DNA of 64,000 nt. Source: Eledone cirrhosa (Eukaryota). The notes under the pieces were generated by a model that had not been told where the DNA came from, ran no database searches, and worked only from the letters and a program-made list of their open reading frames with translations. Location: positions 31,800 through 95,799 of the forward strand of contig CAXHJY010000134.1 in the NCBI GenBank assembly GCA_964016885.1, given 5' to 3'. This document shows, one piece after another, positions 10,612-60,325 of this stretch; positions within the stretch are counted from its first letter, which is position 1, and each line of letters starts with the position of its first letter. The position numbers and the translations under genes were made by a program.

Positions 10612-11194
10612 TGGTGGCTGCCAACTCGTTTTCGAGTACGGCCACTACTTTATATCCATGTAGGAGAACCCCTACCGATGCGCTGAACGAGTGACTTTTT
10701 AGTCCAGCCAGCGACTTGAAAACTCTGGTACAAACACTACACTTGTGACAATTATTGACACATAGTGCTTTGCCTTTGGTACCATGTGACGACAAGTGCA
10801 GAGAGATCTCCAGATACAAAGCAATGCCTGTGCCGTGAAGCTTTTATAGTGAGCAAAGGCACTGCACAAAGCCAGTCCCACTCTCTTAACCAAGATGATA
10901 TTTACCAAAAAGAAGAACAAGTCAACATCATTGGATACCATCAGGGTTGCAGGTGTTATATCAGAGTTTTCCTTCTCCTAGAATTCTGCCTTGACAAAGG
11001 CTAAGGGGTCATCTCTCCCACTGATTTTGGATGGCCATTGACTCTTAAGAGCTCCTTTGCCCTTTGACAGGTTTTGTTTTTAGTCCTGCAGGATGTCCAA
11101 AGTCACCCTCCTCACCAAGAAACCTTGGTGGGGTTGCCAGTTTAGTCGCCAACGACCCGACCATGAGACAGGTTGTACTGGGTTGTACTGGGAT
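10612..11194 (-). mobile_element. Full-length short RTE-derived non-autonomous retroelement (~580 bp)
   Basis: RTE-like 5' segment (CTAGGAGAAGGAAAACTCTGA) joined to a C-terminal zinc-finger remnant ([17 protein letters not shown]) and a 3' hairpin CTCG-AAAA-CGAG. Multi-copy in this window. Confidence 0.8.
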
Positions 11195-11281
11195 GTATGT
11201 ATACATACATACATACATACATACATACATACATACATACATACATACATACATACATACATACATACATACATACATACA

Positions 11282-14200
11282 CTAAATTGGAATTGGAAGC
11301 TGTGAACGAAATAGCTGGCAATTATCTGAAGGCTATACGATCTAAAGGTGTAGAAACGACATTTGAAACGCTCAATGTTTTGTTATATGTTTCAGCTGTC
11401 ACATTGCTATCATATAACACACATCTAAAACCACGCAATCAAGATACAAACAGAAAGCCTGAAGCAGCGTGGATGCGAAATTTAAAAACCAAAATTTTGT
11501 CCCTGAGACGAAGTATCTCACACATCGCAGTCGTTATGAAATGCAACATAGAGAGCAACTTCACACGACACCAGGAAGACCTAAAGAAAAAGTTAGAGAG
11601 ACGATTTGGAGATGCCAAATTTAAAACTTTGAACTCCAAATTACACCAGTTGAAACAACAACTCACAGCTCCAACAGAAAGACTAAAATATAAGTCAACA
11701 GCACATAAACGACAAGTGCTAAATAGATTGTTTGCCAGAGATCCTAAATCAGTTTATCGCAGCTTCGGTGGCAAAAGCTCAATCCCTGTAAACGACACCC
11801 CTTCAAAAGAACAGGTTGAGAACTACTGGAGATCTGTATGGGAAACGGATGACGGATTCAACAGACAAGCTAATTGGCTAAAACAACTGGAACAGGACTA
11901 CTGCCAACATGTCCAGACAAAACAATATGACATAGATGGGTCAATACTGGAAACAGCTCTACAGAAAATGTCGAATAGGAAATCGCCAGGCCCAGACCTC
12001 ATTACAGGATACTGGTTGAAGAATTTCACTTTCTATCGGCAAGATCTCATACGGCTGTTTACAGAAACCATTAAGGGCACACAAGAACTGCCCAGATGGT
12101 TATCAACTGCCACTACTCTCCTTATTCCCCAAAATAGCCAAACCACCCTTGCTAAAAATTACCGCCCAATTGCCTGCCAAAACATCATGTATAAATTATA
12201 TACTGGGTGCCTTAACCTGTTCTTACAGGATCACTGTGCTACCAACAACATCATAACACCTGAGCAAGCTGGTGGAAAGAGGGAGGTGTGGGGTTGCATA
12301 GATCACCTACTAACTAACAAAATGATTCAGGAAAAAACAACAAAGAATCGCAGAAACATGACTGTCGTGTGGCTGGACTATCAAAAAGCATTTGATAGTG
12401 TACCTCATGGGTGGATTATTAAGGCTTTACAGTTAGCTAAAGTCCCACAACCATTAGTAGCTGCTGTTGAACGCCTGACCAAGAACTGGTACACCAATTT
12501 GATCCTTAGAGGTGAGAAGGAGCAGGTTAAGACTGATAGGATACATTACCAGAAGCGCATCTTTCAGGGTGATAGCTTGTCAGTACTACTCTTCGTTCTC
12601 TCACTGAATCCACTATCTTACCTACTCAGGAAACAAGGTGGACAAAGAAGTGGGCCCAGAAGTATCTCCCATCTTTTCTTTGTTGATGATCTGAAGTTGA
12701 ATGGGCCAAATATCAATGACATCAAGAAACAATTGGACCTCATTACACAATTTTCAACCGACATCAAAATGAAATTTGGTGAGTCCAAGTGTGCATATTT
12801 GGCAGTAAAACGTGGAAGAGCTGTGCCCTCCTCTAGAAATCTAGAGATGAACGGCCTGACAATACAACCTCTGCAGTCAGGTGACAACTACAGATATCTT
12901 GGACAGGATGAGAATGTCAGATATGATGGACCCATAAATAAGGAGAGAACCAGAACTGAATACCTCAGAAGAGTAAAAAAAATATGGTCATCAGAACTGT
13001 CAGCATACAACAAATACATTGCCCACAATACCTATGCTGTGCCAATTCTAACGCCAACATTTGGCCTACTGAACTGGTCATTGCAAGAACTAAGTGAGAT
13101 GGATGTTAGAACTCGAAAACTTCTCAGTGTTACTGGGAACTTTAACATCAATGGTGATGTGGATAGGCTATACTTCTCACGCAAGGAAGGTGGCCGGGGT
13201 CTAAAATCAATATTAACAACATATGAGACCCGGATAGTAACACTGAAGCAACACCTTCAACAGAGGAAAAAGGTTGGCGACCATCTTGCTCAGGTTTATG
13301 AGCATGAAAAAAGAAATATCATTAGAATAGCGACTGATCTGGAGGAGAGATATGGAATAAAGCCTGATATAAATCTCTCACCCAGAGAAATCGGAAGATC
13401 CTATTCAATGTTCAAACAAGAAAAAAAAATTGACCAATTTACAGCGAAAGTTGTGCATGGATACTTGAGGCGTAAAACACAGACCATAGAGGGGATAAAC
13501 CACTCAAAAAGCCTGGCATGGAGTTCCGACAAGTTTATGACATCACACCTTGAGGGATATCTCTATGCAATACAGGAACAAGAACTCCCTACCAAATATC
13601 TGCTGCACAAAAGAGGAGGGCCAGCAGCTGACAATAAATGTAGGCTATGTAAAACAAAGATCGAGGATGTAAGCCACATTGTTGCCAGCTGCGAAAGAAT
13701 GTCATCTCGCTACTACCTCCCCATGAGACACGATGGGATAGCTAGAACTATCTGGAACGCACTTCGGAAAACAAAATTAACAACAAACGAGGAAGAATAT
13801 ATTGAGACAGATGGCACTAAGGAATACTGGTGGAACCTGAAAATAAAAACTGCCACCAAATTAAAGCACAACCGGCCTGATATTGTAGTTTGGGACCACA
13901 CATTGAAAACGTGTTCTGTTGTGGAGATCAGCTGCCCACTTGATGTAAACGTTGTCAGAAAAATACAGGAGAAGGAGGACATCTACGGACCATTGATGAG
14001 GAGTTTACAAATCCAGTATCCAAGATACACCTTTAGCTTCATACCCATCATTATTGGTGCTACGGGTTATATACCAACCCGCTTGGACCAAAGTATGACC
14101 GAACTTGGATTTGCGGACAAAAAGCGCAGCTCCCTAATTCATAGTCTACAAATGGCTGCGATAGATGGCACCTTCAAAATTTGCAAAACATTCTTGCGAT

Positions 14201-14292
14201 TCAAGGGATGACAATTTCTTTTCTTTTACAACCTTGCCACCAGGAAGGTGGCCGGTCAAAAAAATATACTCGAAATTAAGAGAAAGAGAAAA
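11282..14292 (+). mobile_element. R4/Dong-clade non-LTR retrotransposon, 5'-truncated, embedded in (TACA)n
   Basis: Both flanks are (TACA)n. One uninterrupted ORF and a short 3'UTR ending AAATTAAGAGAAAGAGAAAA. Confidence 0.9.
11284..14211 (+). CDS. RT + CCHC zinc knuckle + restriction-like endonuclease (R4/Dong ORF, N-terminally truncated)
   Basis: Motifs KSPGPD, NYRPIAC, WLDYQKAFDSVPH, IFQGDSLS, FFVDD, YRYLG, CRLC..HIVASC, RHD and RPDIVVWD..VVEISCP. The first ~37 aa of the track ORF come from the flanking repeat and microsatellite. Confidence 0.9.
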   Translation, partial: KLELEAVNEIAGNYLKAIRSKGVETTFETLNVLLYVSAVTLLSYNTHLKPRNQDTNRKPEAAWMRNLKTKILSLRRSISHIAVVMKCNIESNFTRHQEDLKKKLERRFGDAKFKTLNSKLHQLKQQLTAPTERLKYKSTAHKRQVLNRLFARDPKSVYRSFGGKSSIPVNDTPSKEQVENYWRSVWETDDGFNRQANWLKQLEQDYCQHVQTKQYDIDGSILETALQKMSNRKSPGPDLITGYWLKNFTFYRQDLIRLFTETIKGTQELPRWLSTATTLLIPQNSQTTLAKNYRPIACQNIMYKLYTGCLNLFLQDHCATNNIITPEQAGGKREVWGCIDHLLTNKMIQEKTTKNRRNMTVVWLDYQKAFDSVPHGWIIKALQLAKVPQPLVAAVERLTKNWYTNLILRGEKEQVKTDRIHYQKRIFQGDSLSVLLFVLSLNPLSYLLRKQGGQRSGPRSISHLFFVDDLKLNGPNINDIKKQLDLITQFSTDIKMKFGESKCAYLAVKRGRAVPSSRNLEMNGLTIQPLQSGDNYRYLGQDENVRYDGPINKERTRTEYLRRVKKIWSSELSAYNKYIAHNTYAVPILTPTFGLLNWSLQELSEMDVRTRKLLSVTGNFNINGDVDRLYFSRKEGGRGLKSILTTYETRIVTLKQHLQQRKKVGDHLAQVYEHEKRNIIRIATDLEERYGIKPDINLSPREIGRSYSMFKQEKKIDQFTAKVVHGYLRRKTQTIEGINHSKSLAWSSDKFMTSHLEGYLYAIQEQELPTKYLLHKRGGPAADNKCRLCKTKIEDVSHIVASCERMSSRYYLPMRHDGIARTIWNALRKTKLTTNEEEYIETDGTKEYWWNLKIKTATKLKHNRPDIVVWDHTLKTCSVVEISCPLDVNVVRKIQEKEDIYGPLMRSLQIQYPRYTFSFIPIIIGATGYIPTRLDQSMTELGFADKKRSSLIHSLQMAAIDGTFKICKTFLRFKG

Positions 14293-15424: not shown

Positions 15425-16641
15425 AAATATGATCATCAGAACTGTCAGCGTACAACAAATACATTGCCCACAATACTTATGCTGTGCCAATTCTAACGCC
15501 AACATTTGGCCTGCTGAACTGGTCATTGCAAGAACTAAGTGAGATGGATGTTAGAACTCGCAAACTTCTCAGTGTTACTGGGAACTTTAACATCAATGGT
15601 GATGTGGATAGGCTATACTTCTCACGCAAGGAAGGTGACCGGGGTCTAAAATCAATATTAACAACATATGAGACCCGGATAGTAACACTGAAGCAACACC
15701 TTCAACAGAGGAAAAAGGTTGGCGACCATCTTGCTCAGGTTTATGAGCATGAAAAAAGAAATATCATTAGAATAGCGACTGATCTGGAGGTGAGATATGG
15801 AATAAAGCCTGATATAAATCTCTCACCCAGAGAAATCGGAAGATCCTATTCAATGTTCAAACAAGATAAACAAATTGACCAATTTACAGAAAAAGTAGTG
15901 CATGGATACTTGAGGCGTAAAACACAGACCATAGAGGGGATAAACCACTCAAAAAGCCTGACATGGAGTTCCGACAAGTTTATGACATCACACTTTGAGG
16001 GATATCTCTATGCAATACAGGAACAAGAACTCCCTACCAAATATCTGCTGCACAAAAGAGGAGGGCCAGCAGCTGACAATAAATGTAGGCTATGTAAAAC
16101 AACGATCGAGGATGTAAGCCACATTGTTGCCAGCTGCGAAAGAATGTCATCTCGCTACTACCTCCCCACGAGACACGATGGGATAGCTAGAACCATCTGG
16201 AACGCACTTCGGAAAACAAAATTAACAACAAACGAGGAAAAATATATTGAGACAGATGGCACTAAGGAATACTGGTGGAACCTGAAAATAAAAACTGCCA
16301 CCAAATTAAAGCACAACCGGCCTGATATTGTTGTTTGGGACCACACATTGAAAACGTGTTCTGTTGTGGAGATCAGCTGCCCACTTGATGTAAACGTTGT
16401 CAGAAAAATACAGGAGAAGGAGGACATCTACGGACCATTGATGAGGAGTTTACAAATCCATTATCCAAGATACACCTTTAGCTTCATACCCATCATTATT
16501 GGAGCTACGGGTTATATACCAACCAGCTTGGACCAAAGTATGACCGAACTTGGATTTGCGGACAAAAAGCGCAGCTCCCTAATTCATAGTCTACAAATGG
16601 CTGCGATAGCTGGCACCTTCGAAATTAAGAGAAAGAGATAA
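15425..16641 (+). mobile_element. Second R4/Dong copy (3' third, with deletion near the 3' end)
   Basis: Near-identical to 12981-14292. Flanked by (TACA)n; lacks the segment containing the normal stop codon. Confidence 0.9.
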
Positions 16642-18669: not shown

Positions 18670-18841
18670 AATTGTTTCTACTTTTGGCACAAGGCCAGCA
18701 ATTATCCTAGTGTATTACTGGTACTTTATTTTATCGACCCCGTAAGGATGAAAGGCAAAGTTTGAACTCAGATCATAAAGGGAGGTAAAGGTAACTCTAT
18801 GTTTCAAAGCATGGCGTCTGACCCTCTACCGATACTGCCAA
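18670..18841 (-). mobile_element. tRNA-derived SINE abutting a Tx1 tail
   Basis: Same family as 2442-2616; followed by (AAT)n. Confidence 0.85.
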
Positions 18842-18910
<69 letters not shown>

Positions 18911-19228
18911 TTCTTTATTGGCCACAAGGGCTGACATCAAGAAAAACATTACAGACGGCACAGGACGGTACAGGACGGTACAGGACGGTACAAGACGGTA
19001 CGATGTGGGTTTTGTGCGTGTAAATATTTTTATTATTTATATAAGAAAAGAAAAAAAGGACATAGAAACATATATATATATAAACAATAAAAATGAAAAT
19101 TGAAAAAATGAAAAATTCCCCAATAGGGAGGAAACCTCCGAGGGTTACTCGTGGCGAAAACCACACAAAAGACCATGGCCACTCTGACCCCCAGGGCAAG
19201 CGCCCTCTCAATTTTTCCATTTCTCAAA

Positions 19229-22200
19229 CTACAGGCGTATATTCAGAGTGGTCCCGTTCACTCGGACCATTCTCGCTACATTCACCCACCTTTCAACAAA
19301 CTTGCTAGAAGGCAGCACTTGCTTCTCCACCCTGATTTTCCTCTTCAAGTGAAACTTGAAAAAGTTAATTAGGGATTCGCCGAAGAGGAAAGTGTCTGTC
19401 TTTAACCCTTTCAACCTTGTCCACCACACAATCTCTTTCGCCATGGCCACCAGGCAGATAAAAACCACCTGCCCTTCCTCCTCGAAGGAAGACGGCGAGA
19501 CCATCTGCACAATGGAGTCAGTCGATAACCGGATCAGTCCTACACGCGACAGCAACTGTTCGACATAGCTCCACAAGTCAGCAATGCTCGGGCACTGAAC
19601 GAGTGCGTGAACGACGGTTTCGTCGCTCTGCGCGCATCTCGGACAGGCTCGGCTGACGGCACTTCCGTGCCTGTAGAGCTTATCTCGAACCGGCAGCGCT
19701 CCCCGGTAGCACTGCCAGGCCAGGGATTTTTGGAAGTTATCCATAGGCCCTGGGCTGAAAGTTCTCCGGAAGAGAGCAAACAGCTGATCTTCTTCGACGC
19801 CCAGGATCTCTCCGAGAACGTCGTCGCTCATCCCCTCCACTAGTCCTCTACAGAACGCCGAGGTGGATGTTCCACCGATACTGGTGCCCAGCTGGCAGAG
19901 GGCAGTGAGCGCCTGGAGACATTCCAGTTTCCAAGCGCTATCCCTCGGTCTTTTTCTGACCCAGGACTGCAGCTCCGTCAAGGAGACGAGCTGTGGGAAA
20001 ACGTGCCTGGCGAAAGGCGACTACACCGGTTCACCGTCAAGGAAGCACCAGAGATGTCGCAGCCTCCGCGCATGTTTGCGCATCATCAGCCATGGCATGC
20101 CCAGTCCTCCACGCAACGGGTGTTGACAGCAGATGGATCGTCTGACCATGGGAGCGCATCCCTTCCACAAAAAGCGGAAGAGGGGGCGCTCCATTTTGGC
20201 TCATTTCTGGGTGAGGGAGGCCACCTTGCTCGTTACCTCGTTCCAGTTTTTTTCCATCTGGAGATCCGGTCCGAACCAGACCCCGAGCAATTTAACCAGT
20301 CCGTCTGTCCAACGCCCCACGACGCTGTCGGACGGCATGGACTTGCCTCTCCAGGTGCCGAGCTGCAGGCCCACCGACCTTTTCTAGTTTATCTTTGCTC
20401 CTGTCACCGCTTCGTATTCCTTGAGAGCGGTACCGAGCATCTGGACTTGTTTGGTGCTCGACACCACCACGGTGACGTCGTCGGCGTAAGCCGACACGGA
20501 TTTCCCGCTTCCCAGTTCGCGTGGGACGCCCCTCATCGCCCCCAGTTTGTGCAGTAACGGCTCGAGAGCCAATAAGTACAAGAGGGACGAGAGGGGACAA
20601 CCCTGGCGGACTGAGCGCATGATGCTGAACGGCTGCGACAGGTGACCGTTCACCCTTACAACTTAGCAGATGTCGCTGAACATCGCTGCGATCCAACCCC
20701 TGAAAACGGGCCCGAAACCGGCTGCCTCGAGGACCGCCGCCAGGTACCGATGGTCGACCCTATCGAATGCTTTGGATTGATCCAAATTGATCAGGGCCCC
20801 ACCCGTGCCAGGTTCCTTAACCACCCTCTCTATGATGTATCGCATGAGGTGGAGGTTGTCGTGTATGGATCTGTCCGGAATGGCGCATGTCTGCGCCTCT
20901 CCCACCAGAGCCTTGGCGACAAGCGCCAACCTCGTTGCTAACACCTTGGCCAAAATCTTGAACTTTGCGTTTAGCAGGGTTATGGGCCTGAAATTATCGA
21001 CAACATCCCCCTTGTTCGGGTCTTTTCTCAGCAGCACCACCGCTCCCCGGCTCACAAAACTTGGAAAGCTCCCGTTCTGCTGCCAGTTTCAGTAGACGTC
21101 TGCCAAGAGGTCACCGAACAAGTGTGGCATAAATGCATAAAGCTCGTAGGGCAGACCATCCAAACATGGCGATTTACCCCTCGTGCAGTTAGCCATCGCT
21201 TCCCGTATTTCACCGGCTGTTATTGGCTTTTCGCAACACTGTGCTGCGGTCGTCGAGAGCCGAGGCAGTCCGTCGAGGTATGCACTGAAGTCCATGCCCC
21301 GATCCGGGCCGCCGCTGCTCCCGAACAGTTCAGCAAAGTGCTGCTGACAAGCTTCACACATCCGCTAGGGTTCGAGCGTCACGCACCCGTTTTGGTTAGA
21401 CAAAGACCGAATTGTGGCTTTGTTGCCACGTCACGCCTCTGCCACCCGGGCCCATTGGACGGCTTTTGTCCCTTCGTGTTTCAGAGCACGCGCTCTAGCT
21501 CTGACAACGCAGCCTTCGTGTTTTGCGTTGAAGAATTGGTCGAGTGCCAATCTCGCCGCAAGCACCTCGGTTGCGATGCCTGTCCTAAACGCCTCTTTTA
21601 GCTTTCTGACTAGCTCTCCCTCTACTCTATTTTCCTCTATCACTACTCCTTTGCTAAACCTAATCGACTCTACTTTAATTGCCCTTTTCAGGGCGAACCA
21701 CCACCTGTTGTTGACGACCGCTCCCGTCAACGCCCGCTTAACTAATAAGCTAATCCGGTCTCTGTAGGCTTTGCGCGCCAGGAAAGACGTGTTCAGCTTC
21801 CAGTAACCGGGCCCTTGTCGATGAAGTCTGTCTATGTCGATCTCACAGATCACAAATTTGTGGTCTGTGTAGTCGACTATTTTAAATTGTGGACAACTTA
21901 TACTAGCCTTATCTAGTTCTCTGCAGAATACCCTATCGAGATACGATCTGGATGACTCGATGCGGTTTGTCCATGTCCACATTGGCACATTCGGGTGATC
22001 CAGTCGATACCTGTCAGACAGTTCAAAACGTCTGAGTTGGTGAGGCGTTGCACCCTCCTCCCCTATCCAGTAGCCCCACACAATCCCAGCGTGCATCCAA
22101 GATACTGTTCTAGTCGCCCACTAACACTAAGATCGGGACGTTTCAAGAAAGGACTCTAGACGTCTGAAGAAATCTGTTGGAGTGTAGACGGCTACTAGCC

Positions 22201-22518
22201 TGAAAGCATTGCCTTCGCTGCCGGTCACGTCCAGCACCACGGACTTACCTTCTGGGTCTAGGAAGATGGCCTGTATGGCGAGATCCAAGCCTCTCCGAAA
22301 AAGGACGGCAACCCCGCCCCCGATCCTGGACGGCTGGGAGATGCGTATACATCGTAGCCGCCGAAGATCGGTGCGAAGGCTTGTGCTTCGGAGATTCTGG
22401 TCTCACTGATGCCCACCACATCTATATTTAGTGACCTGAGGTCGTTGAGCAGGTGACCCTACTTCCAAGATGACCCCAGGCAACGTGCATTTATACTGCC
22501 TATTCTGAGTACGGCCAT
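19229..22518 (-). pseudogene. Tx1 #1 ORF2 (APE endonuclease-RT-zinc finger), disrupted
   Basis: MAVLRIG start, SYLDR, TDHK, PGYWKLN, NFRPITLLN, LDQSKAFDRVDH, VRQGCPLS, YADD and CPRC..ETVVHALVQC across several frames. Confidence 0.9.
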
Positions 22519-22548
22519 GTTGGATGAGAAACGAGGCAAGTGAGAAAG

Positions 22549-24040
22549 GGTCACTTACCTTGATCGTGTGGTGAAGGGACAGTAGAACCGTCCCTTTGGC
22601 TGGTCATGGGTGTTTCCAAGAGGATGTCAGTGTATATCCTCTTGGTAACCGACCCTCTGAAGTCTCCAACTGCGTTGGGGAATTTTTGTTTTAAAGGTTT
22701 GTACTGCTCTATTGAGATTTCAATGATGCTTATGTTTGTCGGGAGAGTTCTTGGTGTTGGTGGGGTGTAGTAGTTTTTTTTCTGTGATGTCTGTGTGCTG
22801 CTTTATATATTGTATGAGTTCTTTTTTTACCATGTTTATGGCTGTGTACTTTTTTGGGGGAGGGGTGATTTTGTTGCTGTTTTCCTCTTGTTGCTGTTTG
22901 GTGTGTGTGTTTTGTTTTGTTTGCATTGTTTGGTGTTTTTGGTGATGCTGGTGGTGGTGTGGTTGTTGTTGGCGGTGGTGCTTGTGGTGGTGATGGTGAT
23001 GGTGGTGGTGTTGCTGCAAGTTTCCTTGCTGCCTTTACCCCTCTTTGTGTGCCTTCGCTTTTGGAGGGTGAATCTAAGGGTTTTTTGTTTTTTGTTTTTT
23101 TGTGGCAGACCGTTTGCCACTTCACTCCCGCCTCAAACTCCATGTCGGATTCCGTGGCGTCTGGGAGGGGTATGTGCTCCACGGCTGTTGGTGGTGGTAG
23201 TAAAGCCCTCTTCGGCAATTTTGTTGCTGTGTAGCTACTACAAATGTAGCTACTGGTGTTGCCGCCACTGATGCTGCTGTTTTAGTTGTCCGTGGCCTTG
23301 GTACGGGTGCCATGGACGTTGCCCTCCTACTCACCGTGGAAGGGGCTTTTGCGTTTGTTGCCTGCCCTGCTCTTGGTAGCAGCGGACCAGGTATTGGAAG
23401 GAGAGGGGCCTTCTTCTTCGCTGCCTTCTGCGGGAAAAAGGCCCTGAGGTGACCCTTCGACCCACAGAGATAACATTTTGGCCGTCTTCCTTCTACGTTT
23501 ATAGGGAGTTGGAGTCCTTTCTCGATGTTTATGATATCGGGGATAGCGTCGATACATTCCTGGTTAGTTTGTATAAGCATTTGCATGCCTATACCTGACC
23601 AGTTCTCTCTCCCTATTTTCTCTACTTGCAGCATGGTCGTCCTGTTCTCGATTCCAGCAAGGACAGACGCGGCCAGCCAAGGTATGGGCACGTCGGGTAG
23701 GACCTGGGTCACTTTGGCCCTCACAATTTTCTGCCCGCAGTAGGAGGGCACCAAGACTATCTCCTCACTCTTTGGGGTTTCCAAAGAGTGAGACTTTGCT
23801 TCCTGGGGGGTGGCGAAAAGTACGTCTACTGTGACGTACTTTCTGCCTCGGGTGATGTGGGTTTTGCGTGCCCAGACGCACCCCAAGGCCTTTTGGATTT
23901 GAGCCTCCGTGGCTCTCTCCACCCGATGTGAGATTTTGCTTACGGTGCGGTAAGTCACCGTCCGTAGCTGCTGGTCCTTGAAAAAATCGGGTGGAGACTC
24001 TATTGGCGCTTCTTGTCACCATGGCCCTTGCGACTGCCAT
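22549..24040 (-). pseudogene. Tx1 #1 ORF1 (gag-like, zinc knuckle), disrupted
   Basis: VEGRRPKCYLCGSKGHLRAF followed by a Pro/Thr/His-rich low-complexity region; homologous to ORF1 of copies #2 and #3. Confidence 0.75.
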
Positions 24041-24589: not shown

Positions 24590-28185
<3,596 letters not shown>

Positions 28186-29132: not shown

Positions 29133-29774
29133 ACTTTAATACATGAATGCACTTACATCTAACTATACACATCAAACATATATATATATTTACTTATTTA
29201 TATACATTTTCACATATATATACATACTTATGGTCGCTTTTAGACACATTCATTATCGCATATTTGCACCTATTCTCATCAGCATATCTTTCCATTATTA
29301 GTGTGGTAATTTAAGGTTATTAATATATGTTGAGAAGAGATTGTTTTTATATTTTTCTAACTAGATTGAGGTTTATATAGTTGGGGGGATGTCCCTCTTT
29401 TATGTAATATTCGGCTTGTAGTGAGAAAAAAGGGTTTTAGTTCGGTGACGGCAGAATAATGTTCGTTCAATTCTGTTATTCAGCAGTTTCTTCTTGTGTG
29501 TGATTATGTAATAAATCTCAAGATTACACAATTTGCAGAAATTTTGGCTCCTGGAAAAGCTTTGGGTTTTAGCTACCACTATAAGACTGTCATACTCTAC
29601 AGCGTTAAACCGTGAACAACACATAAAAAAGATCAATACTAGAAGGTTAAACGAAAACACTAAAAACTTAAGTACAAAGAACACAAAAAAAAAACAGTAG
29701 ACAATACACTACAGAACATAAATAAACCACACCTAAGTTCGTCCGCAATACTACTCCAGAGAAAACCCAACGTA

Positions 29775-30182
29775 CACAACTGTAACTGCACCTATCCTGA
29801 CAACTGCCCCCTCGGCAATAACTGCCTGGAAAAAAATATTATTTATAAGTGTACCATTAAATCCGGAGGCAACGAGTGGTATTACGTGGGATCAACGGCA
29901 ACATCGTTTAAATCTCGATTATATAGGCATTCTTACTCAATAAAACACCAGAGCCAAAGAAATGTAACAACTTTAGCAAAAAAAGCTTGGACGCTCAGGG
30001 ATAGCGATCAAAAGTTTACCCTAAAATGGGAGAAATTAGCTAAAACCCAAAGCTTTTCCAGGAGCCAAAATTTCTGCAAATTGTGTAATCTTGAGATTTA
30101 TTACATAATCACACACAAGAAGAAATTGCTGAATAACAGAACTAAAACCCTTTTTTCCCACTACAAGCCGAATATTACATAA
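29775..30182 (+). pseudogene. GIY-YIG endonuclease domain of Penelope-like element
   Basis: CNC..CPLGNNCLEKNIIYKC..YYVGST..FKSRLYRH..TTL..W..CKLCNLE..LLN. Confidence 0.85.
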
Positions 30183-34065: not shown

Positions 34066-37000
34066 GAAAATGCCGTTTCCGCTTGGTAGAGGGCTGTGAG
34101 CGCTTGAAGGTACTCGAGGTGCCAGGCACCCATTTTCGGTCTTCGCTTGACCCAGGACTGCAGCTCTGTTAATGAGACGAATTGTGGAAGAGCTTGTCTC
34201 ACAAACGACACCCACACCGGTTCGCCGGTCAGGAATACCTGGAGATGGCGTAGCCTCAGCGCCTGTTTGCGCATCATCAGCCACGGTATGCCCAGCCCTC
34301 CGTTAGAAGGGTGTTGACAGCAGATGGATCTCCCCACCAATGGAACCTGTTTCTTCCAGAGGAAATTGAAGAGTAGGCGTTCCATTTTGGTGAGGTATTC
34401 GCGGGTATAAGGCACGACTATCAAGCGGTAGTAGATGACCTCCGCTCGACCTTTCAAGGAGAGTTTGCACTCACCCCACTTCTGGGTGAGTGCAAACAAC
34501 ATCGCCGTGACCTCGTTCCAGTTCTTGTCCACCTGGAGGTCTGGACCAAACCAGACTCCGAGCAATTTCACCGGTCCTTCCGTCCAGCGTCCAACGACAC
34601 TGTCGGAAGACATGGGTTTGCCTTTCCATGTGCCGAGTTGCAAACCAACAGACTTGTTTGGGTTTAATCTTGCTCCTGTCAATGTTTCGTATTCCTGTAA
34701 TAGGTTGCTGATTACCCCGATTTCCGAGGTTTTCGACACCATTACGGTTATGTCGTCGGCATAGGTCGACGCTGTTTTTGGCAGTCCTGGTTCGATCGGG
34801 ATGCCCTGCAACAGCTCCAACTTCCGCAGTAATGGCTCGAGAGTCAGTACATACAGAATGGAGGAGGGGGCATCCCTGACGGATTGAACGCATGATTTGG
34901 AATGGCTCCGATAAGTAGCCATTCACCTTGACTGCCGAGAAGATGCTGGTGTGCATGGCAGCGATCCAGCCTCTGAAGACGGGACCGAAGCCGGCCACCT
35001 TGAGAACCGCTTCCAAGTATTGATGGTCGACCCTATCAAATGCCTTAGCTGATCTAAATTGATCAGAGCCCCACCGAAGCCAGGTTTACACCCTACACTC
35101 TCTATGATGTGTGAGGTGGAGGTTGTCGTGTATGGACCTGGTCGGGATTGCACACGTTTGCGCTTCCCCTACCAGGTTCTCGACGACAAGCGCCAGCCTC
35201 GCTGCTAACACCTTGGCCAAAATATTTAATTCTGTGTCGAGCAGAGTTATGGGCCTGAATTGCTTATCTCATCCCCCTTGTTCTCATCTTTCCTGATCAG
35301 CGTTACTACGCCTCTGCCTACAGAACTGGGAATCCTCCCGTTCTGCTGCCAGTTGCAGTAGACCATTTCGAGGACGCCAGAGAACAAGTCTGGCATGCCT
35401 ATGTAAAACTCATAGGGTAGACCATCTGCCATTCCTAAGTGCCTCTTCTACTTTAGCTACCAGTTCCTTTTCGGTTTTGTTTTTTTTCTAAAGCTACTTC
35501 CTTGATAAATGCTATCTATTCTATTCTAATTGCTCTCTTGAGAGAGCTCCACCACCTGTTGTTGACGATCGCCCCCGTGCTAATCCGTTTACTGTAGGCC
35601 TTACGCACCGGAAGCGACATGTTTAGCTTCCAGTATCTGGGTCCCTGTCTATGTGTTCTATCAAGGTTGACTACGCAGGTGACTAATTTGTGGTCTGAAT
35701 AGGCAACCATGTGCATTTGTGGTCAGCTTAATGTTTTCTTATCATTCTGTCTAATTAAAAATCTATCTAAATACGACCTAGAAGACTCAGTGCGGTTGCT
35801 CCACGTCCACAGGTCCACAGTGGTAAACTTGGGAAGTCTAGTCGATATCTATCAGCCAGCTGGAATTGGCTGATGAGATTTTTGAGGCTATTACACCCGC
35901 CTCTATTATCACAAGCTCCTACATAGTCCCAACGTGCATCTAAGATGCCATTCCAGTCCCCCGCTAACACTAAGGAGCGAGACGTTCCCAGGAATGGCTC
36001 CAGACTCTTGAAGAACTCTGGTCGCGATGTCCCAGTCGGGGCATATACGGCCACCAGTCTGAAAGCTCCATTCACGTCCAGGACCACCAAGCTGCCCTCC
36101 TGGTCCAAGTGAATCGTCTGTGCTTTGAGATCCAATTTTTTTCGAAACAGAACAGCAACTCCCTCTCCACCTCCTGGCTGATAGAGAGATGCGTAGATCT
36201 CAAAGTCATCGAACATGGGCGTTAGCTGCTGCTTGTCGTGAATCCTGGACTCGGTGATGGCTATCACATCTATACAATGTGACTTGAGATCATTTAAAAG
36301 CTGGCTCTGTTTCCAGGGCATGCCCAGGCCACGTACATTCAAACATCCAACTTATATAGTCGCCATGTTGGTGAAGAAGAGTTAGGGAGAGAAAAGGCAG
36401 GAACACTTACCTTTTCGTTTCCTGGAAGTCGGGTTGTTCGATCTCGATGTCCAGATTGGGGGTGTTTGGGGAGGGAGGGAATCCTTTTAGCAGGACACGG
36501 TTAAGGGTATTTTGGCAAGGGGGACCCACATCATGTGGGAAGGTCCCTTTCAATGTTTCATGATCAGTTTGAGGTTTGGGGGTGGGTTGTTGGTGGGGAA
36601 GGTTTTCCCTTCCGTTTGGATAGTAGGGCCCTTTCGGACAGTTTCTACTAGTTCTTTGTTTGTTGTTTTTAGGTATGTGTAATGTGTTTTGATTTTTTAT
36701 GTGTACTGTTTCTGTTTGTAGTTTTCTTTTTCTGGTTGGGGTTTGTGATTGTAGTGGTGTGGGTGTTTGTTTTGTTGGTGAAGCGTTTGGTTGTGTTGGT
36801 GGTGATTGTGTTGTTGGTATGTTTGTCGTTTGTGGCGGTGTGTTTATGGTGGGGTTGGGTGTGTGCGTGTTTTTTTGTCTCTTTTTTTTGGAGATGCAGA
36901 GGTTCCCGTGTCTGAGATTTCTGAATCAGGGGTAGATTGGAGGGGTATGTTGTGTGGTGGAGTGTTTGTGCAGGTGTTTGTGGAAGTATTTGACAGGGAG

Positions 37001-38300: not shown

Positions 38301-38930
38301 GTACAAATTGGTATAAAAATAAAAGTTCACAATGACGAATTTCTAAAGAAATTTAAATAAAACTTACCGAGCAAGTTTAACACGTGTCCATCCCAGATAG
38401 ATAGAAATATCTGGATGTAATAATATACAGTAACTGGGATGTATATAAAGTCACATGGGATATGTTTATGTACAATAAACATTTCATATGCCTTTACATC
38501 CCTACTATAAACCAAGCTATGTTAGTGCTGCTGTTAATTAATCCTACTCAGTCAAGCTCACATTATATGGACATGAGCATTTCAATCGATCTTTTATTTT
38601 GTATTATATGCAAATGAGCATCACCAGCTGATCTTTCATAAGCATTTAAATGTTTATCTTATTCTTGTCTCAATAGCGAGTGAGTAAATATCATCGATGG
38701 CAGATAAACATCCAGAAACACGTATCTGACACTCTTAACGGCTACTGAGATAATTGTAATCAGAGCTTAAAACATTCATAGCGGGAGTCTTATATGTTTA
38801 TTATACATAAGCACATTGTATATGGCTGCAAATACACCTTTATGATAAACCAGGCTACGTTAGTGCTACTGCTAAATACCCCCTACCAAATTAATTATGT
38901 TAGAAACATGTGCTGTTATTTCTTCAGTAG

Positions 38931-52078: not shown

Positions 52079-55000
52079 CTACAGCCGCATGACCAGAGTA
52101 GGCCCACTCACACGGGCCATTCTCGCCACATTCACCCACCTTCCAGCAAATGTATTGGGGGGCAGCACTTCTCTCTCCACCCTAACCTTCCTTTCCAAGT
52201 GAAACTTGAAAAAGTTGATGAGGGATTGGCCGAAGAGAAAAGTGTCTTCAGTCCTTTCAACCTCGTCCACCATGCAACCTCTTTCGCTACTGCCACCAGA
52301 CAGAGGAAAATTGCCTGCCCTTCCTGGCCAAAAGAAGGCGGCGGGTTGATCTTCACTATGGACTCTGCCGATAGCCGGATCCGTTCTACACGCGACAACA
52401 GCTGTTCAACAAAACTCCACAAGTCAGTAATGCACGGACACTGGACGAGTGCGTGCAGAACGGTTTCGTCGCTCTGCGCGCATCTCGGGCAGGTCCGTCT
52501 GAGGTGCCTGTAGAGTTTATCTCGAACCGGCAGTGCCCCCCGGTAGCACTGCCAAGCGAGGGATTTTTGGAAATTATCCATCGTCCCCGGCTCGAAAGTC
52601 TTCCGGTACAGACTGGTTAGTTCGACTTCGTTGACTCCCAGAGCCTCTCCGAGTGCGTCGTCGCACTTGCCCACCACTAATCCTCTATAGAACTCGAGAG
52701 TGGAAGTTCCACTGACCGCATTGCCCGCCTGGTAGAGGGCAGTGAGTGCCTGGCAACATTCCAGATGCCAGTCACCCAGTCTCTTCTTGACCCAGGACTC
52801 AGTCAAAGAAACGAGCTGCGGAAAGGCCCGTCTGACAAACGGCGACCACACCTGTTCACCGTTTAGGCAGAATATCTGGAGATGCCGCAGCCTCAGCGCG
52901 TGCCTGCGCATCATTAGCCACGGCATGCCCAGCCCCCCACGTAGAGGGTGCTGGCAGCAGATGGACCGCCTCACCAGCGGAACCTGACCCCTCCACAAGA
53001 ATTTGAAGAGGAGCCGCTCCAAGATAGCGAGGCGCGAACGGGGGCAAGGGACGACAGTCAGACGGTAGTAGATGGCGGACGCGATGTACGCGTTCGCCAC
53101 CTCCGCCCGACCTTTCAGTGATAGCTTCATTCCAGCCCATTTCTGGGTGAGACTAACTACCCTTCCCGTCAACCTCGTCCCAATTCTTATCCACCTGGAG
53201 GTCTGGTCCGAACTAAACCCCTAGCAACTTTACCGGTCCGTCCGTCCAGCGCCTAACGACGCTGTTGGACGGCATGGACTTGCCTCTCCAGGTGCCGAGT
53301 TCCAAGCCTACTGACTTTTCCGGGTTAAGTTTCGCTCCCGTCAACCTTTCATATTCCTCCAATAAGTTGCCGACCACCTCGATTTCTGAGGTGTCCGACA
53401 CCATCACGGTGATGTCGTCCGCATAAGCCGACACGGCCTTTCCGCGTCCCGGTTCGAGCGGGATGCCCTGCAACAGCTCCAGCTTCCGCAGTAAAGGTTC
53501 GAGATTCAATACGTACAGAAGGGAGGAGAGAGGGCACCCTTGACGGACAGATCGGGAGACCTGAAGCGGTTCCGAGAGGTGGCCATTAATTTTGACCATC
53601 GAGCAGGTGCCGCTGTGCATTGCAGTGATCTAGCTTCTGAAGACGGGGCCGAAGCCAGCCACCTTGAGGACAGCCTCCAGGTACCGATGGTCGACCCTAT
53701 CGAATGCTTTCGATTGATCTAAATTGATCAGAGCCCCACCGAAGCCAGGTTTACACCCTACCCTCTCTATGATGTATCGTATTAGGTAGAGGTTGTCGTG
53801 TATGGACCTGGTTGGGATTGCGCAAGTTTGCGCCTCCCCAACCAAATCCCCGACGACAAGCGCCAACCTCTTCGCTAACACCCTGGCCAAAATCTTAAAC
53901 TCTGTGTTGAGCAGAGTTATGGGCCTGAAATTGTCTAAAGTGTCCCTCTTGTTCTCGTCTTTCCTTATCAGCGTCACTACGCCCCGGCTCACAGAACTGG
54001 GAATACTCCCGTTTTGCTGCCAGTTGCAGTAGAGCGCTTCGAGGAGATTGGAGAACAAGTCTGGCATATTTACGTAAAGCTCGTAGGGTAGACCATCCAA
54101 ACCGGGTGACTTGCGCCTCATGCAGCCGACAAGGGCATCCTGAATCTCGGCTGAAGTAATTGGCCTTTCGCAACGCCCAGCGTCAGCCGTCGAGAGTTGC
54201 GGCAAGCCATCGAGGTAGGGACTGAAGTCCGCCACCATCTCTGACCCCCCACTTCCCCCGAACAACCGAGCAAAATGTTGGCGAAAGGCCTCATACATCA
54301 GCTTGGAATCGCTCAGCTCGTGCCCGTCTCGGTCCGTCAAAGACCGAATCGTGGTTTTATTACCACGCTGCGCCTCTACCACGCGGGCCCATCGAACAGC
54401 TTTGGTTCCCTCGTTGTTCAGAGCACGCGCCTTAGCTCTGACAATGCAACCTTCGTGTTTCGCATTGAAGAAATGGTCTAATGCCATTCTCGCCGCTAGC
54501 ACATCAGTTGCAATGCCACTACCAATAGCCTCGTCTAACTTATCTACCAACTCCCCCTCCTTTCTATTTTTTTCTAATGCTACTTCTTTGCTAAACTCTA
54601 TCGACATTACTCTAATCTCTCTTTTGAGAGCCCCCCACCATCTATTGTTGACGACTCCGTCAACTTTTTCTTAACTAAATTGTTGACCTGGTCCCTGTAA
54701 GCCTTACGTGCCGGAAATGACATGTTTAGCTTCTAGTAACCAGGTCCTAACCTACGCGTCTTATCTAGGTCGACCATACAGATCACAAACTTGTGATCTG
54801 AATAGGCGACCGTTTCAAAACGTGGACAGCTTACACTATTTCTGTCTATTTTCCTAATGAATATCCTGTCTATATACGATCTAGATGACCCTATGTGGTT
54901 AGCCCAGGTCCACACTGGCGCATTAGGGAAATCTAGTCGGTACCTGTCAGACAGTTGGAACTGGCTGATCAGGTTCTTGAGGCTTTTGCACCTCCGGCTC

Positions 55001-55471
55001 CTATCGGATACTCCCACAGTCCCAGCGTGCGTCTAAAATGCCGTTCCAGTACCCCGCTAACAGTAAAGGGCGAGACGTACCCAGAAAGGCTTCCAGGCGT
55101 CTAAAGAAGTCCGGCCGTCCTTCCCCAGTAGGAGCATAGACGGTCACCAGTCTAAAGGCACCACCTTCATTATTGTTCACGTCCAGGACCACCAACTTCC
55201 CGTCCGGGTCCCGGAAGATCGACCTTACCTCGAGATCCAGGCCTTTCCTAAACAGCACTGCCACCCCGCCTCTCATTCCCGGCCGGCTAACAGATGCAAA
55301 GATCTGATAGTCGTCGAAAATGGGGGCTAGTGCGCGCGTGTCGGAAATCCTGGTCTTGCTGACTGCAATTACATCCATTTCTATAGACCTGAGGTCGTTG
55401 AGCAGGTGACCCTGCTTCCAGGACGATCCCAGGCCTCGAACATTTAAACATCCTACTCTTAATACGGCCAT
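52079..55471 (-). pseudogene. Tx1 #3 ORF2 (APE-RT-zinc finger), disrupted
   Basis: MAVLRVGCLNVRGL, VYAPT, SYIDR, SDHK, KSPGLDGLPYE, DQSKAFDRVDH, VRQGCPLS, YADD and CPRC..H..C. Confidence 0.9.
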
Positions 55472-55502
55472 GTTGGCAGGTTAAACAGAGAGAGAGAAAG
55501 GT

Positions 55503-57460
55503 TTACTTACCTTCCGGGCTCTTGTGAAGGTCGGGTTGTTCGACCTCCATAGTTAGTGGGGTTTCTTTTGGGAACCCCTTTAAAAGTCTTGAAGTGGGTT
55601 TTACGTTCGGGGTTCCCACGTCCCGAGGAAAGCTGTCTCGTATTTCTTTGAATATGTCGAGCGACATTCGCACCAGAACCAAATCTTCCGGCACGCGAAA
55701 TGTGCTCGATTTAAAAATTTCCCCCTCTTTTTGTATATTTTCACTTCGTGCTACGAGGGCCATCAATTCCTTGTTGGCCCTTCTGACGAGCACGAAGTTT
55801 TGTATGTTTTGTTGGTGATTTTATTTGTTTGCGTGGCTGTGGTGGTGATGGTTTTGGTGGTGTTGTTTCGGTTGTATCTATGTTTGTTGTGAGTGCGGTG
55901 TCTGTGGTTTCAGATGTTTGTGTGTATATTTGTTCTTGCGTCTGTTTCGGTTGTTTGCGTTTGGGGGATTCTGGATGGTGATGGTGGTGTTGATGTTGGT
56001 GTTATTGGAGAGATGTTTGCGTGGGTGGTGTCTGCGTTTTTTTATTGTGGGTGCTTGTGCTTTGTTGAGTTATTTTTTTCTCTTTGTGTTTCCTTTTTTG
56101 TATTTTGGGGGATTTGGGATTTCCCTCATTTTTACTACTGGTAGATGAGGGGTCTGTGTCTGTATGTATGTTTAAGGTTTTATTGGTGTGTGTATTTTTT
56201 TTTTGGGGGGGGGGGATTTGACAGCTTTCCTCGTTTCCCTCCTGGGTGGTCAATGTTGGTGGTGGTCTTTCTATTGGTGTTGTTGGTGGTTTTGCCGGTG
56301 CAGGTGTTGGTTGTGGTCCTCGCCCCGGCATCGGCAGCAGTGGAGCCTTTCGACCCCTTGCCTCTTTCAGCAGTTGAGGGCAGAAGGCTCGCAAATGGGT
56401 TTTTTCCCCACAAACAAAACACTGCGGCTTTTTGCCTTCGGTCATAAGGTGAATGACAGTCCCATTCTGAAGGCGGATGTGGTCTGGGATTGTCTTCACA
56501 TTCTCGGGCCTGATCTGGAGAAGGATCTCCAGGTCAACCCCGGACCAGTCCTCTCTGGCCGTTCTGGTCACTTCTATAGGGACTGTATCCGTCCCCTCCA
56601 CAATCACACATCCCAGAAGCCACCACATGTCAAGTCCTGGTGGGATTCTGGGAATGCGGAGACGAGCCGTTCTTTTTCCCATGTGGGAGGGGTACATTAT
56701 GACCTTGCTGGTTTTGCAAGGAGTCATGGCGTGTTTCATAGCGAGGGCTTCTGACTTGAACAACACCGAAATGGTGCCGTACTGTCTGCCCCTCTCTATG
56801 TACTGGGTGTCTTCTCTGATGCACCTCAGCGCGACTTCGATATCTTCTTGTGGGATTAACGCTGCCCTTTTGGTTTGTGCTGAGATGCATCTATAATGCA
56901 CCGTTTTGCGCTCCACTGCCTCAATAGCTTCTACCGGGACAGTTAAGTTGGCCCAAGTTTGCTCTTGCTTGATGAGCTTCCATGCCTGGGCCAACTTTTC
57001 ATCTTTGTTTGAGAGGGCCATATTGAAGCATGGCCTCTTTTTTGCTGCTGCCGCAGCGAAAGTGGTCTTGTTTTCGTTGGGGATGTTGTTGACGTTGTTC
57101 TTGTTGGTGTTGTTGTTAGCACTGTCGCTGTTATCATTGTTGTCTTTGTTGCCACCGTTGTTCTCGGTGCAGTTGGTATTGTTGCTGTTGGTGTTGTCGC
57201 TATTTGTTTTCATGTTAGTGGTGTTGATATTGTTGTTTTATTTGTTATTTTTTTTTGTTATCTGTATTTTCGTTGTCGCTGTTACTGTCATTTTTTTCAA
57301 AATTAGAGTTCTTATTGGTATCATTGGTGTCTTTGTTTACCTTGTTTGTGGTGGTGTTTGTGTTATCAATGTGTGTTAATTTCGCTGTAGCGCTCCTCTC
57401 AACTTCTACGTCGTTGTCGCACGACAGCCGACATATCGCTGGGGGGCGTGGCTCAGCCAT
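55503..57460 (-). pseudogene. Tx1 #3 ORF1 (Asn-rich N-terminus, TFAAAA motif, CCHC knuckle), disrupted
   Basis: MAEP start, TTFAAAAAK, EGKKPQCFVCGEKTHLRAFCP; ends EGK-stop. Confidence 0.8.
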
Positions 57461-57672
57461 GTTTTTTTTTCTTCGTAAATTTTTTAACATGTAAAAAAAA
57501 GTTCAAATATTTGGGCCAAAAGGCCAAAATATTATACTTTCCCCTTCACGGGGCAAAGTCTAAGGGCTTATATCCCTTACACAACAAGAAATATTTAACA
57601 ACAAATAATTTAAACAGGCAAATAAAGCGACTTACTGTGAGCGAGCAAAATACGTCCGCTTAGACCAATAAT

Positions 57673-58490
57673 AATTGTTTCTACTATTGGCACAAGGCCA
57701 GAAAATTACCCAGTACATTACTGGTACTTTATTTTATCGACCCCGTAAGGATGAAAGGCAAAGTTAACCTCGGCGGGATTTGAACTCAGAATGGCAAGGG
57801 CCGTAACTCTATGCGTCAAAGCATGGCGTCCGAACCTCTACCGATACTGCCAATCCACCGTAATAATAATAATAATTGTTTCTACTTTTGGCACAAGGCC
57901 AGCAATTGTCCCAGTGTATTACTGGTACTTTATTTTATCGACCCCGTAAGGATGAAAGGCAAAGTTAACCTCGGCGGGATTTGAACTCAGAAGGGCAATA
58001 ATAATAATAATAATAATAATAATTTCTTTATTGGCCACAATAAAGAAAGACATTACAGACGGCACAGGACGGCACGGTGTGGGTTTTGTGCGTGTAATGA
58101 TTTTTATTATTTATATAAGAAAATCCCGCCGAGGTTGACTTTGCCTTTCCTCCTTACGGGGTCGATAAAATAAAGTACCAGTAATGCACTGGGTAATTGC
58201 TGGCCTTGTGCCTAAAGTAGAAACAATTATTTATATAAGAAAAGAAAAAAAAAGACAGAAACATATATATATAAACAATAAAAATGAAAATTGAAACAAT
58301 GAAAAATAATAATTGTTTCTACGTTTGGCACAAGGCCAGCAATTACCCCAGTGCATTACTGGTAGTTTATTTTATCGACCCCGTAAGGATGAAAGGCAAA
58401 CTTAACCTCGGCGGGATTTGAACTCAGACCGTAAAGGGGCATGACTATGCTGGAAAGCATGGCGTCCGACCCTCTACCGATACTGCCAAT
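57673..58490 (-). mobile_element. Nested cluster of four SINEs and a Tx1 #1-family 3' end
   Basis: SINE(-) 57673-57860, truncated SINE(-) 57875-57996, Tx1 3'UTR 58021-58306 interrupted by SINE(+) 58124-58225 with 18-bp TSD, and SINE(-) 58311-58489. Confidence 0.85.
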
Positions 58491-59608: not shown

Positions 59609-59715
59609 TGGTTCTCTTTCTTCTCTGTACGCACGGAGAGATACAGCTCTAAGATGGATCTGTGGCGTTCGGGTGTCATTAGGTCCTGCATGCCTATAAT
59701 AATAATAATAATAAT

Positions 59716-60325
59716 GCTTTCTTTATTAACCACAAGGGTTGACATAAAGTATAACATTAAGGACGGCTCAGGAGGGTACAAATGGGCATTTCTGCGTGTA
59801 AAGAAAAAACAATAACAAAGGAAATGACACAAAAAAGAGGGACACTCATGGAGAAAGCTCCTTAAAAAAGCCACGGTCACCCTGACCACCAGGGCAAGTG
59901 CCCTCTCCCAGTTTTTCACCTTCAATTTACAGGCGCAGACTCAGAACAGGCCCATTCACTCGGGCCATGCTTGACTCTTTCACCCATCTTTCAACAAATT
60001 GCTAGGAAGAGAGCACTTCCCTCTCTACCCTGATTTTACTTTTCAAATGAAATTTGAAAACGTTAATCAGGGCATCAGGGAAGAGGTAAGTGCTCGGCTT
60101 CAGCCCTTTCAAACAAGTCCCCCACACGACCTCTTTCGCCGTGGCCACCAGGCAGATAAAAACTGCCTGCCCTTCCCGGCTAAAGGAAGGCGGCTGGGCA
60201 ATCCTTGCGATGGAGTCAGCTGATAGCCGGATCCGTCCTACACGCGACAGCAGGTGTTCGACATAAACCCACAAGTCAGCAGTGCTCGGACACTGGAAGA
60301 GTGCGTGCAGGATGGTTTCGTCACC
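59716..60325 (-). mobile_element. Tx1 #4, 5'-truncated 3' fragment with (TTA)n tail
   Basis: ORF2 C-terminus (FKFHLKSKIRVERE) and 3' end CCCTTGTGGTTAATAAAGAAA. Confidence 0.85.

Follow-up and report, generated by a model that had tools for sequence, protein, structure and literature searches.

Why should a LINE carry a consensus 5' splice site at the very end of its first gene? The question is raised by the window analysed here, a stretch of 64,000 nt from Eledone cirrhosa (assembly GCA_964016885.1, contig CAXHJY010000134.1), in which three copies of a two-ORF retrotransposon, all on the minus strand, display a splice-donor octamer at the ORF1 end, followed by a pyrimidine tract and by the ORF2 ATG (22518, 36366, and 55471). 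This arrangement had been pointed out in a first-pass annotation of the window and was borne out in all three copies.

The inter-ORF module in the window and the element that carries it

Copy 1, a member of family A, has its donor octamer at 22553..22560 in phase 1; the exon would end at 22559, and the ORF1 stop codon TGA occupies 22553-22551. The spacer (22519..22552) is rich in pyrimidines and contains no AG. The decayed ORF2, with endonuclease, RT, and zf-RVT domains, covers 19229..22518 and ends in a TAG at 19231-19229, a weak candidate acceptor, behind which a 3' UTR with AATAAA and a (TTA)n tail is located (18842..19228). Upstream of the spacer, the likewise decayed ORF1 with a weak zf-CCHC was assigned to 22551..24015, with a provisional 5' limit. 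Copy 2 (family B2) reveals the consensus octamer at 36405..36412 in phase 2, the ORF1 stop TAA at 36409-36407, a pyrimidine-rich spacer free of AG at 36367..36404, and a decayed ORF2 lacking its 3' part (34071..36366). For copy 3 (family C), the octamer lies at 55505..55512 in phase 1, TAA at 55505-55503, the pyrimidine-rich, AG-free spacer at 55472..55504, and the decayed ORF2 at 52079..55471, with a TAG at 52081-52079 followed by G as another weak candidate acceptor. A fourth family, of J type, is represented by a 3' fragment (59700..60322, minus) that has TAA, not TAG, as its ORF2 stop, near 59930.

The gap between octamer and ATG amounts to 34, 38, and 33 nt in copies 1, 2, and 3, corresponding to 40, 44, and 39 nt from the GT of the donor. 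An overlap of octamer and ORF1 stop had been described for copies 1 and 3, which is correct (Gly-Lys-stop, phase 1), but the octamer of copy 2 overlaps its stop as well, in this case as Arg-stop in phase 2. The composite pattern has three matches in the window, a number reached by none of 100 shuffles, while the bare octamer occurs eight times, compared with 2.4 expected, and five of these eight lie outside the module.

Further donor-like sites were seen in the same copies. A second perfect octamer is found within ORF2 of copy 1 (22243-22250, minus), and families A and J1 also have one, about 310 nt past the main donor. Copies 2 and 3 carry a second donor-like hexamer (38362..38367 and 57630..57635, both minus) about 25 and 27 nt, respectively, from the 5' end of the element; this 5'-end hexamer is also present in families B, G, and G2, while F and I show it in a weaker form.

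The complete element is a two-ORF LINE of about 5.8 kb, and its inter-ORF module is abundant, with 2,828 matches in the 3.0-Gb genome versus three for a reversed control. An ORF2 that is intact comprises 1,148 aa with endonuclease, RT, and zf-RVT domains (Pfam Exo_endo_phos, E 7e-13; RVT_1, E 3e-27), and its best match among solved structures is human L1 ORF2p (E 4e-54; R2, E 3e-22). In intact copies, ORF1 is open over 613-712 codons; Pfam returned no RRM domain in it and a zinc knuckle that is weak (zf-CCHC, E 0.0075, below the curated cut-off). The elements end in AATAAA and a microsatellite tail. ORF2 3' ends outnumber ORF2 starts (23,305 versus 6,021, counted with two different patterns), and 5'-truncated copies are present. 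These features support a classification as L1-clade non-LTR retrotransposons, placed to clade level, "Tx1" being the label of the first-pass annotation. Within the L1 clade, the Tx1 subgroup is assigned by RT phylogeny together with reference Tx1 elements, and its ORF2 combines an APE endonuclease, RT, and zf-RVT and its ORF1 a zf-CCHC (PMC5203782); our element has the same ORF2 domains, and its weak zinc knuckle may correspond to the zf-CCHC.

Copies are found within microsatellites, (TTA)n and (ATCT)n among others, and within tandem arrays, families B and F being located in minisatellite arrays. A target preference for repeats is a property of Tx1 elements. Different families were also found inserted head to tail, about 5.8 kb apart (loci L031-L035, L049-L050, and L052-L065).

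Conservation of the donor and its match to U1

A blind search with the ORF2 N-terminus only, ignoring everything upstream, gave 6,021 matches genome-wide. Among 100 of these that were listed, about 86 had the exact donor form (A or G at +3 and +4) when scored by eye, and the remaining ones, about 14 of the 100, carried point or deletion variants of it. From 70 starts, 49 copies with both ORF2 ends were obtained, which fall into 12 families with a DNA identity of 66-88%. The donor occupies all three phases among them, namely phase 1 in families A, C, and D (Gly-Lys-stop), phase 2 in B, E, F, G, H, I, and J (Arg-stop, with all three stop codons in use), and phase 0 in L (Val-Ser, with the stop 36 nt downstream); the phases of A, B, C, F, H, J, and L were read from long open frames, the others by homology of the ORF1 end. 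This means that codon or stop context cannot account for the motif.

Across 17 junction types, which are not independent of each other, positions -1, +1, +2, +5, and +6 are invariant, -2 and +3 are the same in 16 types and +4 in 14, with nothing but A/G swaps at +3 and +4. Family K, represented by one copy outside these types, has a weaker donor variant with T at +5. Within the 12-family alignment, six of the eight motif columns are invariant, compared with four of about 70 columns upstream and none in the spacer until its Kozak-like end; as a yardstick, 72 of 364 fourfold sites of ORF2 are invariant. The region is rich in indels and the spacer varies between 25 and 47 nt. Compared with family J, family A has lost about 45 nt of the ORF1 end, and compared with G, family L has lost 14 nt; in both A and L the frame has changed and the donor has been retained. 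In six families, about 3,800 copies in total, a mutated GT was seen in isolated copies or in local duplicates, and no amplified subfamily without the GT was found, while spacer variants define many subfamilies; in one subfamily of about a dozen copies, one G was lost with the hexamer left intact. The first-pass annotation had named synonymous Gly-Lys codons in other families, or families lacking the motif, as findings that would speak for a constraint on the protein or against the idea altogether. Neither refutes it: no family without the donor was found in this genome, and the alignment of the inter-ORF regions, with its three phases and invariant core, indicates constraint at the nucleotide level.

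We also considered the donor as a general feature of L1/Tx1 elements and rejected this. Distant L1-like relatives from metagenome contigs (22-35% identity; 80 loci fetched, 31 excluded due to a match that fell short of the ORF2 start, 49 scored) revealed a donor-like site in two of the 49, which is near background. Judged from these alignments, the motif is specific to this lineage and is constrained as nucleic acid rather than as protein.

Family L deserves separate mention. It comprises 377 near-identical matching copies, for example at loci L088 and L089 (G000:C1:18372500-18382499 and 11261500-11268000), and its ORF2 starts at an ATA overlapping the ORF1 TAG, the first in-frame Met being codon 35. 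Among 100 of the 377 copies that were listed, none has an ATG at this place; by eye, 98 show the ATAG context and two are point variants, and six carry G at +4, which is still a donor form. ORF2 is open over 1,145 codons in one of three copies examined, and pN/pS on the family L branch is 0.13, versus 0.10-0.14 in three other families. Due to the ATA start, the open frame, and purifying selection, ORF2 of family L is likely made without an AUG, which makes this young LINE family a candidate for non-AUG initiation.

The U1 snRNA genes of the host, with 42 matches in the genome, have the expected 5' end, and the donor pairs with it at 7-8.5 of nine positions. Among the 284-402 GT sites of an element, the donor matches U1 better than any other site in 11 of the 17 types, shares first place in three, and is beaten in three. 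The claim of a selected, U1-complementary 5' splice site thus gains support from the phases, the invariant core, and the 5' end of host U1 as read from the genome, and taking splicing and U1 binding together, the motif is probably a selected U1-binding 5' splice site. A hairpin hiding the donor was rejected as compositional, cognate arms reaching -8.5 and non-cognate ones -8.7 kcal/mol (p 0.68). The U1 genes themselves are tandemly arrayed with a period of 2.67 kb (G000:C1128; C2:180973544-180995099).

Possible uses of the donor

The reading that we lean to, with slightly less than even confidence, is that the U1-complementary site at the ORF1 end works as a real donor and yields an ORF1-only mRNA from some transcripts. 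U1 snRNP would bind the donor, aided by the pyrimidine tract, perhaps through help of the TIA-1 type. Most of the RNA would stay unspliced and serve as bicistronic mRNA and as template, while the spliced fraction would retain all of ORF1 and lose the start of ORF2. The best candidate acceptor, a weak one, would be the TAG stop codon of ORF2, in which case the whole 3.46-kb ORF2 would be the intron. Bound U1 may in addition guard the full-length RNA, as in EVD, a copia element of plants. Since ORF1p is in excess anyway in a LINE with bicistronic RNA, the need for an ORF1-only RNA is weaker than in copia.

At its 3' end, ORF2 passes through a stretch rich in pyrimidines into a TAG stop in 11 of 12 families, followed by G in ten and by T in 11. 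This TAG ranks third for pyrimidines among 33 conserved YAG sites, its conservation does not exceed the fourfold-site yardstick, and joining the donor to it would terminate ORF1 within three codons in seven of the 12 families. No synonymous signal for any other acceptor was detected in ORF2; an acceptor at ORF2 nt 421 was rejected, the A-ending Leu codon there being one of 25 invariant Leu third positions and unexceptional. Family J keeps the donor and has TAA as its ORF2 stop in nine of nine aligned copies, which means that donor and acceptor do not covary. A joint loss of donor and acceptor was accordingly dismissed, as eight copies of family J have the donor and a single, deleted copy is without it. 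Three contig sets placed on the two-family locus L052 gave DNA-like coverage of all parts, and among 15 listed joints out of 423 none connects donor and acceptor, which is uninformative on splicing.

Retrocopies were searched for products of such splicing. In families B, B2, E, G, H, and I, 3,732 copies were screened for a donor joined to the 3' UTR, as in an ORF2-less retrocopy, and none had it; no exact GT-AG join into ORF2 was present among 12, 99, 31, and 34 variant copies listed, most lists having passed an end filter that drops some matches (leaving 99 of 107 in one case). Families A, C/D, J, and F (5, 14, 43, and 0 matches) likewise yielded no GT-AG join with patterns that are blind to exons with T as second base, a join at the ORF2 stop among them; these and the six families above are the ones covered by the retrocopy search. 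An ORF2-less RNA needs ORF2p in trans, and L1 machinery prefers its own RNA in cis, as described in the human L1 work of PMC5860796. Due to this cis preference, ORF2-less copies should be rare, and their absence is modest evidence. In copy L204, the donor continues directly into ORF2, one base beyond the AG at nt 83; at this site, used as a control, about three single deletions were seen among 100 of 344 matches listed, so that singletons of the L204 kind represent background.

A different class of copies bears on donor use. In 18 chimeric copies (L215-L232), the sequence of an E-type ORF1 end breaks off precisely at the exon boundary of the donor, and the ORF1 end of another element follows. 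The junction lands after a CAG 23 nt upstream of the G-type donor in all 18, and four of them have a second junction after a CAG 76 nt further upstream. Ten carry the ORF1 of a G subfamily, two are 5'-truncated, and in six the ORF1 is of type E, with one junction in two of them and with both in four, from which it follows that the two events were independent. In all 18, the last donor is unspliced and ORF2 is of the G type, which is what the copying of RNA in cis should give. E-type ends do immediately precede G-type elements in tandem arrays, which would make read-through splicing possible. The junctions share a microhomology of just 2 nt (AG), in a search conditioned on the donor breakpoint; we infer that a template switch would have used longer in-register homology nearby. 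Two deletions in family J start at the same donor boundary with non-AG microhomology, and a control AG 23 nt upstream (one nearby site, 14 matches) revealed no long-range junction family. The chimeras are therefore suggestive of donor use, and a 2-nt microhomology could produce the same structures. A rather doubtful extension is that the entire ORF2 acts as an intron between a donor at the ORF1 stop and an acceptor at the ORF2 stop, and that array read-through RNA is also spliced from the donor to the element that follows. The spliceosome would then build new active chimeric families, combining the ORF1 of one element with the ORF2 of another. Separately, homologous swaps of ORF1 between families were observed, such as a G subfamily with an E-like ORF1.

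The motif could also be part of a termination-reinitiation signal for ORF2, with a coincidental likeness to a splice site. This would fit its overlap with the stop of ORF1, seen in most families, and the exchanges between A and G at +3 and +4 in phase 2, which are at the same time swaps among TAA, TAG, and TGA; reinitiation across the spacer was proposed for mammalian L1 in the review PMC5972666. It is improbable, given that phases 1 and 0 keep the same nucleotides with the stop placed elsewhere. Indeed, family L has shifted its stop downstream, turned the AUG into ATA, and kept both an intact donor and an ORF2 under purifying selection, which leaves reinitiation as the weakest of the three functions that had been proposed for the motif. 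A mere relic of one ancestor is unlikelier still: the families do share an ancestor, their fourfold sites are unsaturated, the 17 types are not independent, and distant relatives lack the motif, but it persists while both flanks acquire indels and frame changes, and amplification has multiplied many spacer variants and, among about 3,800 copies, no loss of the GT. At the lower end of probability stands a short intron across the spacer that would fuse ORF1 and ORF2 in frame. For this, one could cite an AG in the spacer of families D and E, an AG at ORF2 codon 5 in most families, the YAG at nt 83, which all 12 families possess and which is in frame with phase-2 donors, and the junction of L204. 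Most families, however, have no AG before the ATG, and the phases of the donor and of nearby AGs do not covary, which makes a short fusing intron unlikely; besides, an RNA fused in this way would still code for ORF2 and should be copied in cis, yet no exact join was found among the variant copies listed.

A more serious competitor, which we regard as possible though not the likeliest, is that U1 binds mainly without splicing and either keeps the 5.8-kb RNA from being cleaved and polyadenylated too early during its synthesis or aids elongation, rare splicing being a by-product. The same conservation evidence applies to it, its benefit would act in cis, and it would agree with the lack of a clearly constrained acceptor and of a spliced ORF2-less copy among those searched, as well as with the second donor-like hexamer near the 5' end of several families. 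In EVD, mutation of the U1 site abolished splicing and caused early termination, according to PMC5580714. AATAAA in ORF1 often lies 225-355 nt upstream of the donor, but these sites are not homologous, occur at the level predicted from composition (30 observed, about 34 expected), and follow the amino-acid content, due to which the idea of a poly(A) signal conserved ahead of the donor was rejected. ORF2 is free of AATAAA in 12 of 17 types, and neither AATAAA nor ATTAAA is common to all families there, so that little canonical signal would have to be suppressed downstream. Protection by U1 also leaves the TAG-G at the ORF2 end unexplained, which the preferred reading, an ORF1-only mRNA spliced from the donor, would accommodate as a weak acceptor.

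Related systems and neighbouring elements

The closest parallel is the Arabidopsis Ty1/copia element EVD (Oberlin et al. 2017; PMC5580714), in which a spliced subgenomic RNA expresses GAG and conservation is stronger at the donor than at the acceptor. In both elements, the structural gene ends in a conserved donor of the U1 type. EVD couples splicing to the protection of its full-length RNA by U1, and both are proposed for the LINE. As described there, EVD is an LTR element with a single gag-pol frame, a short intron around the protease, and a poly(A) site that is used prematurely, all shown at the RNA level. Our element is, in contrast, a two-ORF LINE with the donor on the ORF1 stop and an acceptor that is only a candidate, and no conserved acceptor signal and no poly(A) signal common to all families was found in its ORF2, so that the likeness is one of working principle only.

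Human L1 provides functional donors in an L1-clade RNA together with cis preference. Its spliced SpIREs (Larson et al. 2018; PMC5860796) retrotranspose when they keep ORF2; the events concern the 5' UTR or 5' UTR/ORF1 and were called evolutionary dead ends, and splicing in elements of the L1 type is described in that source as dead end or host restriction. The site studied here differs in its position at the ORF1 end, in being kept by 12 families, and in having multiplied chimeric products. Two ORFs with a short spacer are shared with mammalian L1 and SART1, and family L has the overlapping stop and the non-AUG start in common with the models reviewed for them, whose reinitiation schemes, as presented in that review (PMC5972666), include no splice-site motif.

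An earlier description of such a LINE donor was not found in the open literature, subscription papers and Repbase notes being beyond reach. The donor at the ORF1 end is lineage-wide, selected, and, as far as found, new for LINEs, though of a kind known from plant copia; its function we infer. If it is kept for expression, this would be a LINE that uses the spliceosome or U1 for itself and converges on a strategy of copia and retroviruses. The system would allow a direct test of how a LINE sets its ORF1p:ORF2p ratio and maintains the integrity of a long RNA, and it offers a possible splice route for the swapping of ORF1 between families. Thousands of strong donors would also trap host exons.

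The window holds further elements besides the three copies. Upstream of copy 1, a member of another LINE clade has inserted, with an open endonuclease-RT frame of 1,020 aa (24734-27796, minus; Exo_endo_phos_2, RVT_1, and DUF6451). An open RT frame of 1,014 aa with zf-RVT lies at 11167-14211 (plus), accompanied by a second, partial copy at 15433-16641 (plus); we take its C-terminal motif to resemble a restriction-like endonuclease. A 172-aa frame at 29664-30182 (plus) has no Pfam match and presumably resembles the GIY-YIG endonuclease of Penelope-like elements. Finally, one and the same SINE-like repeat on the minus strand borders the 3' end of copy 1 (18700-18840) and the 5' end of copy 3 (57680-57900).
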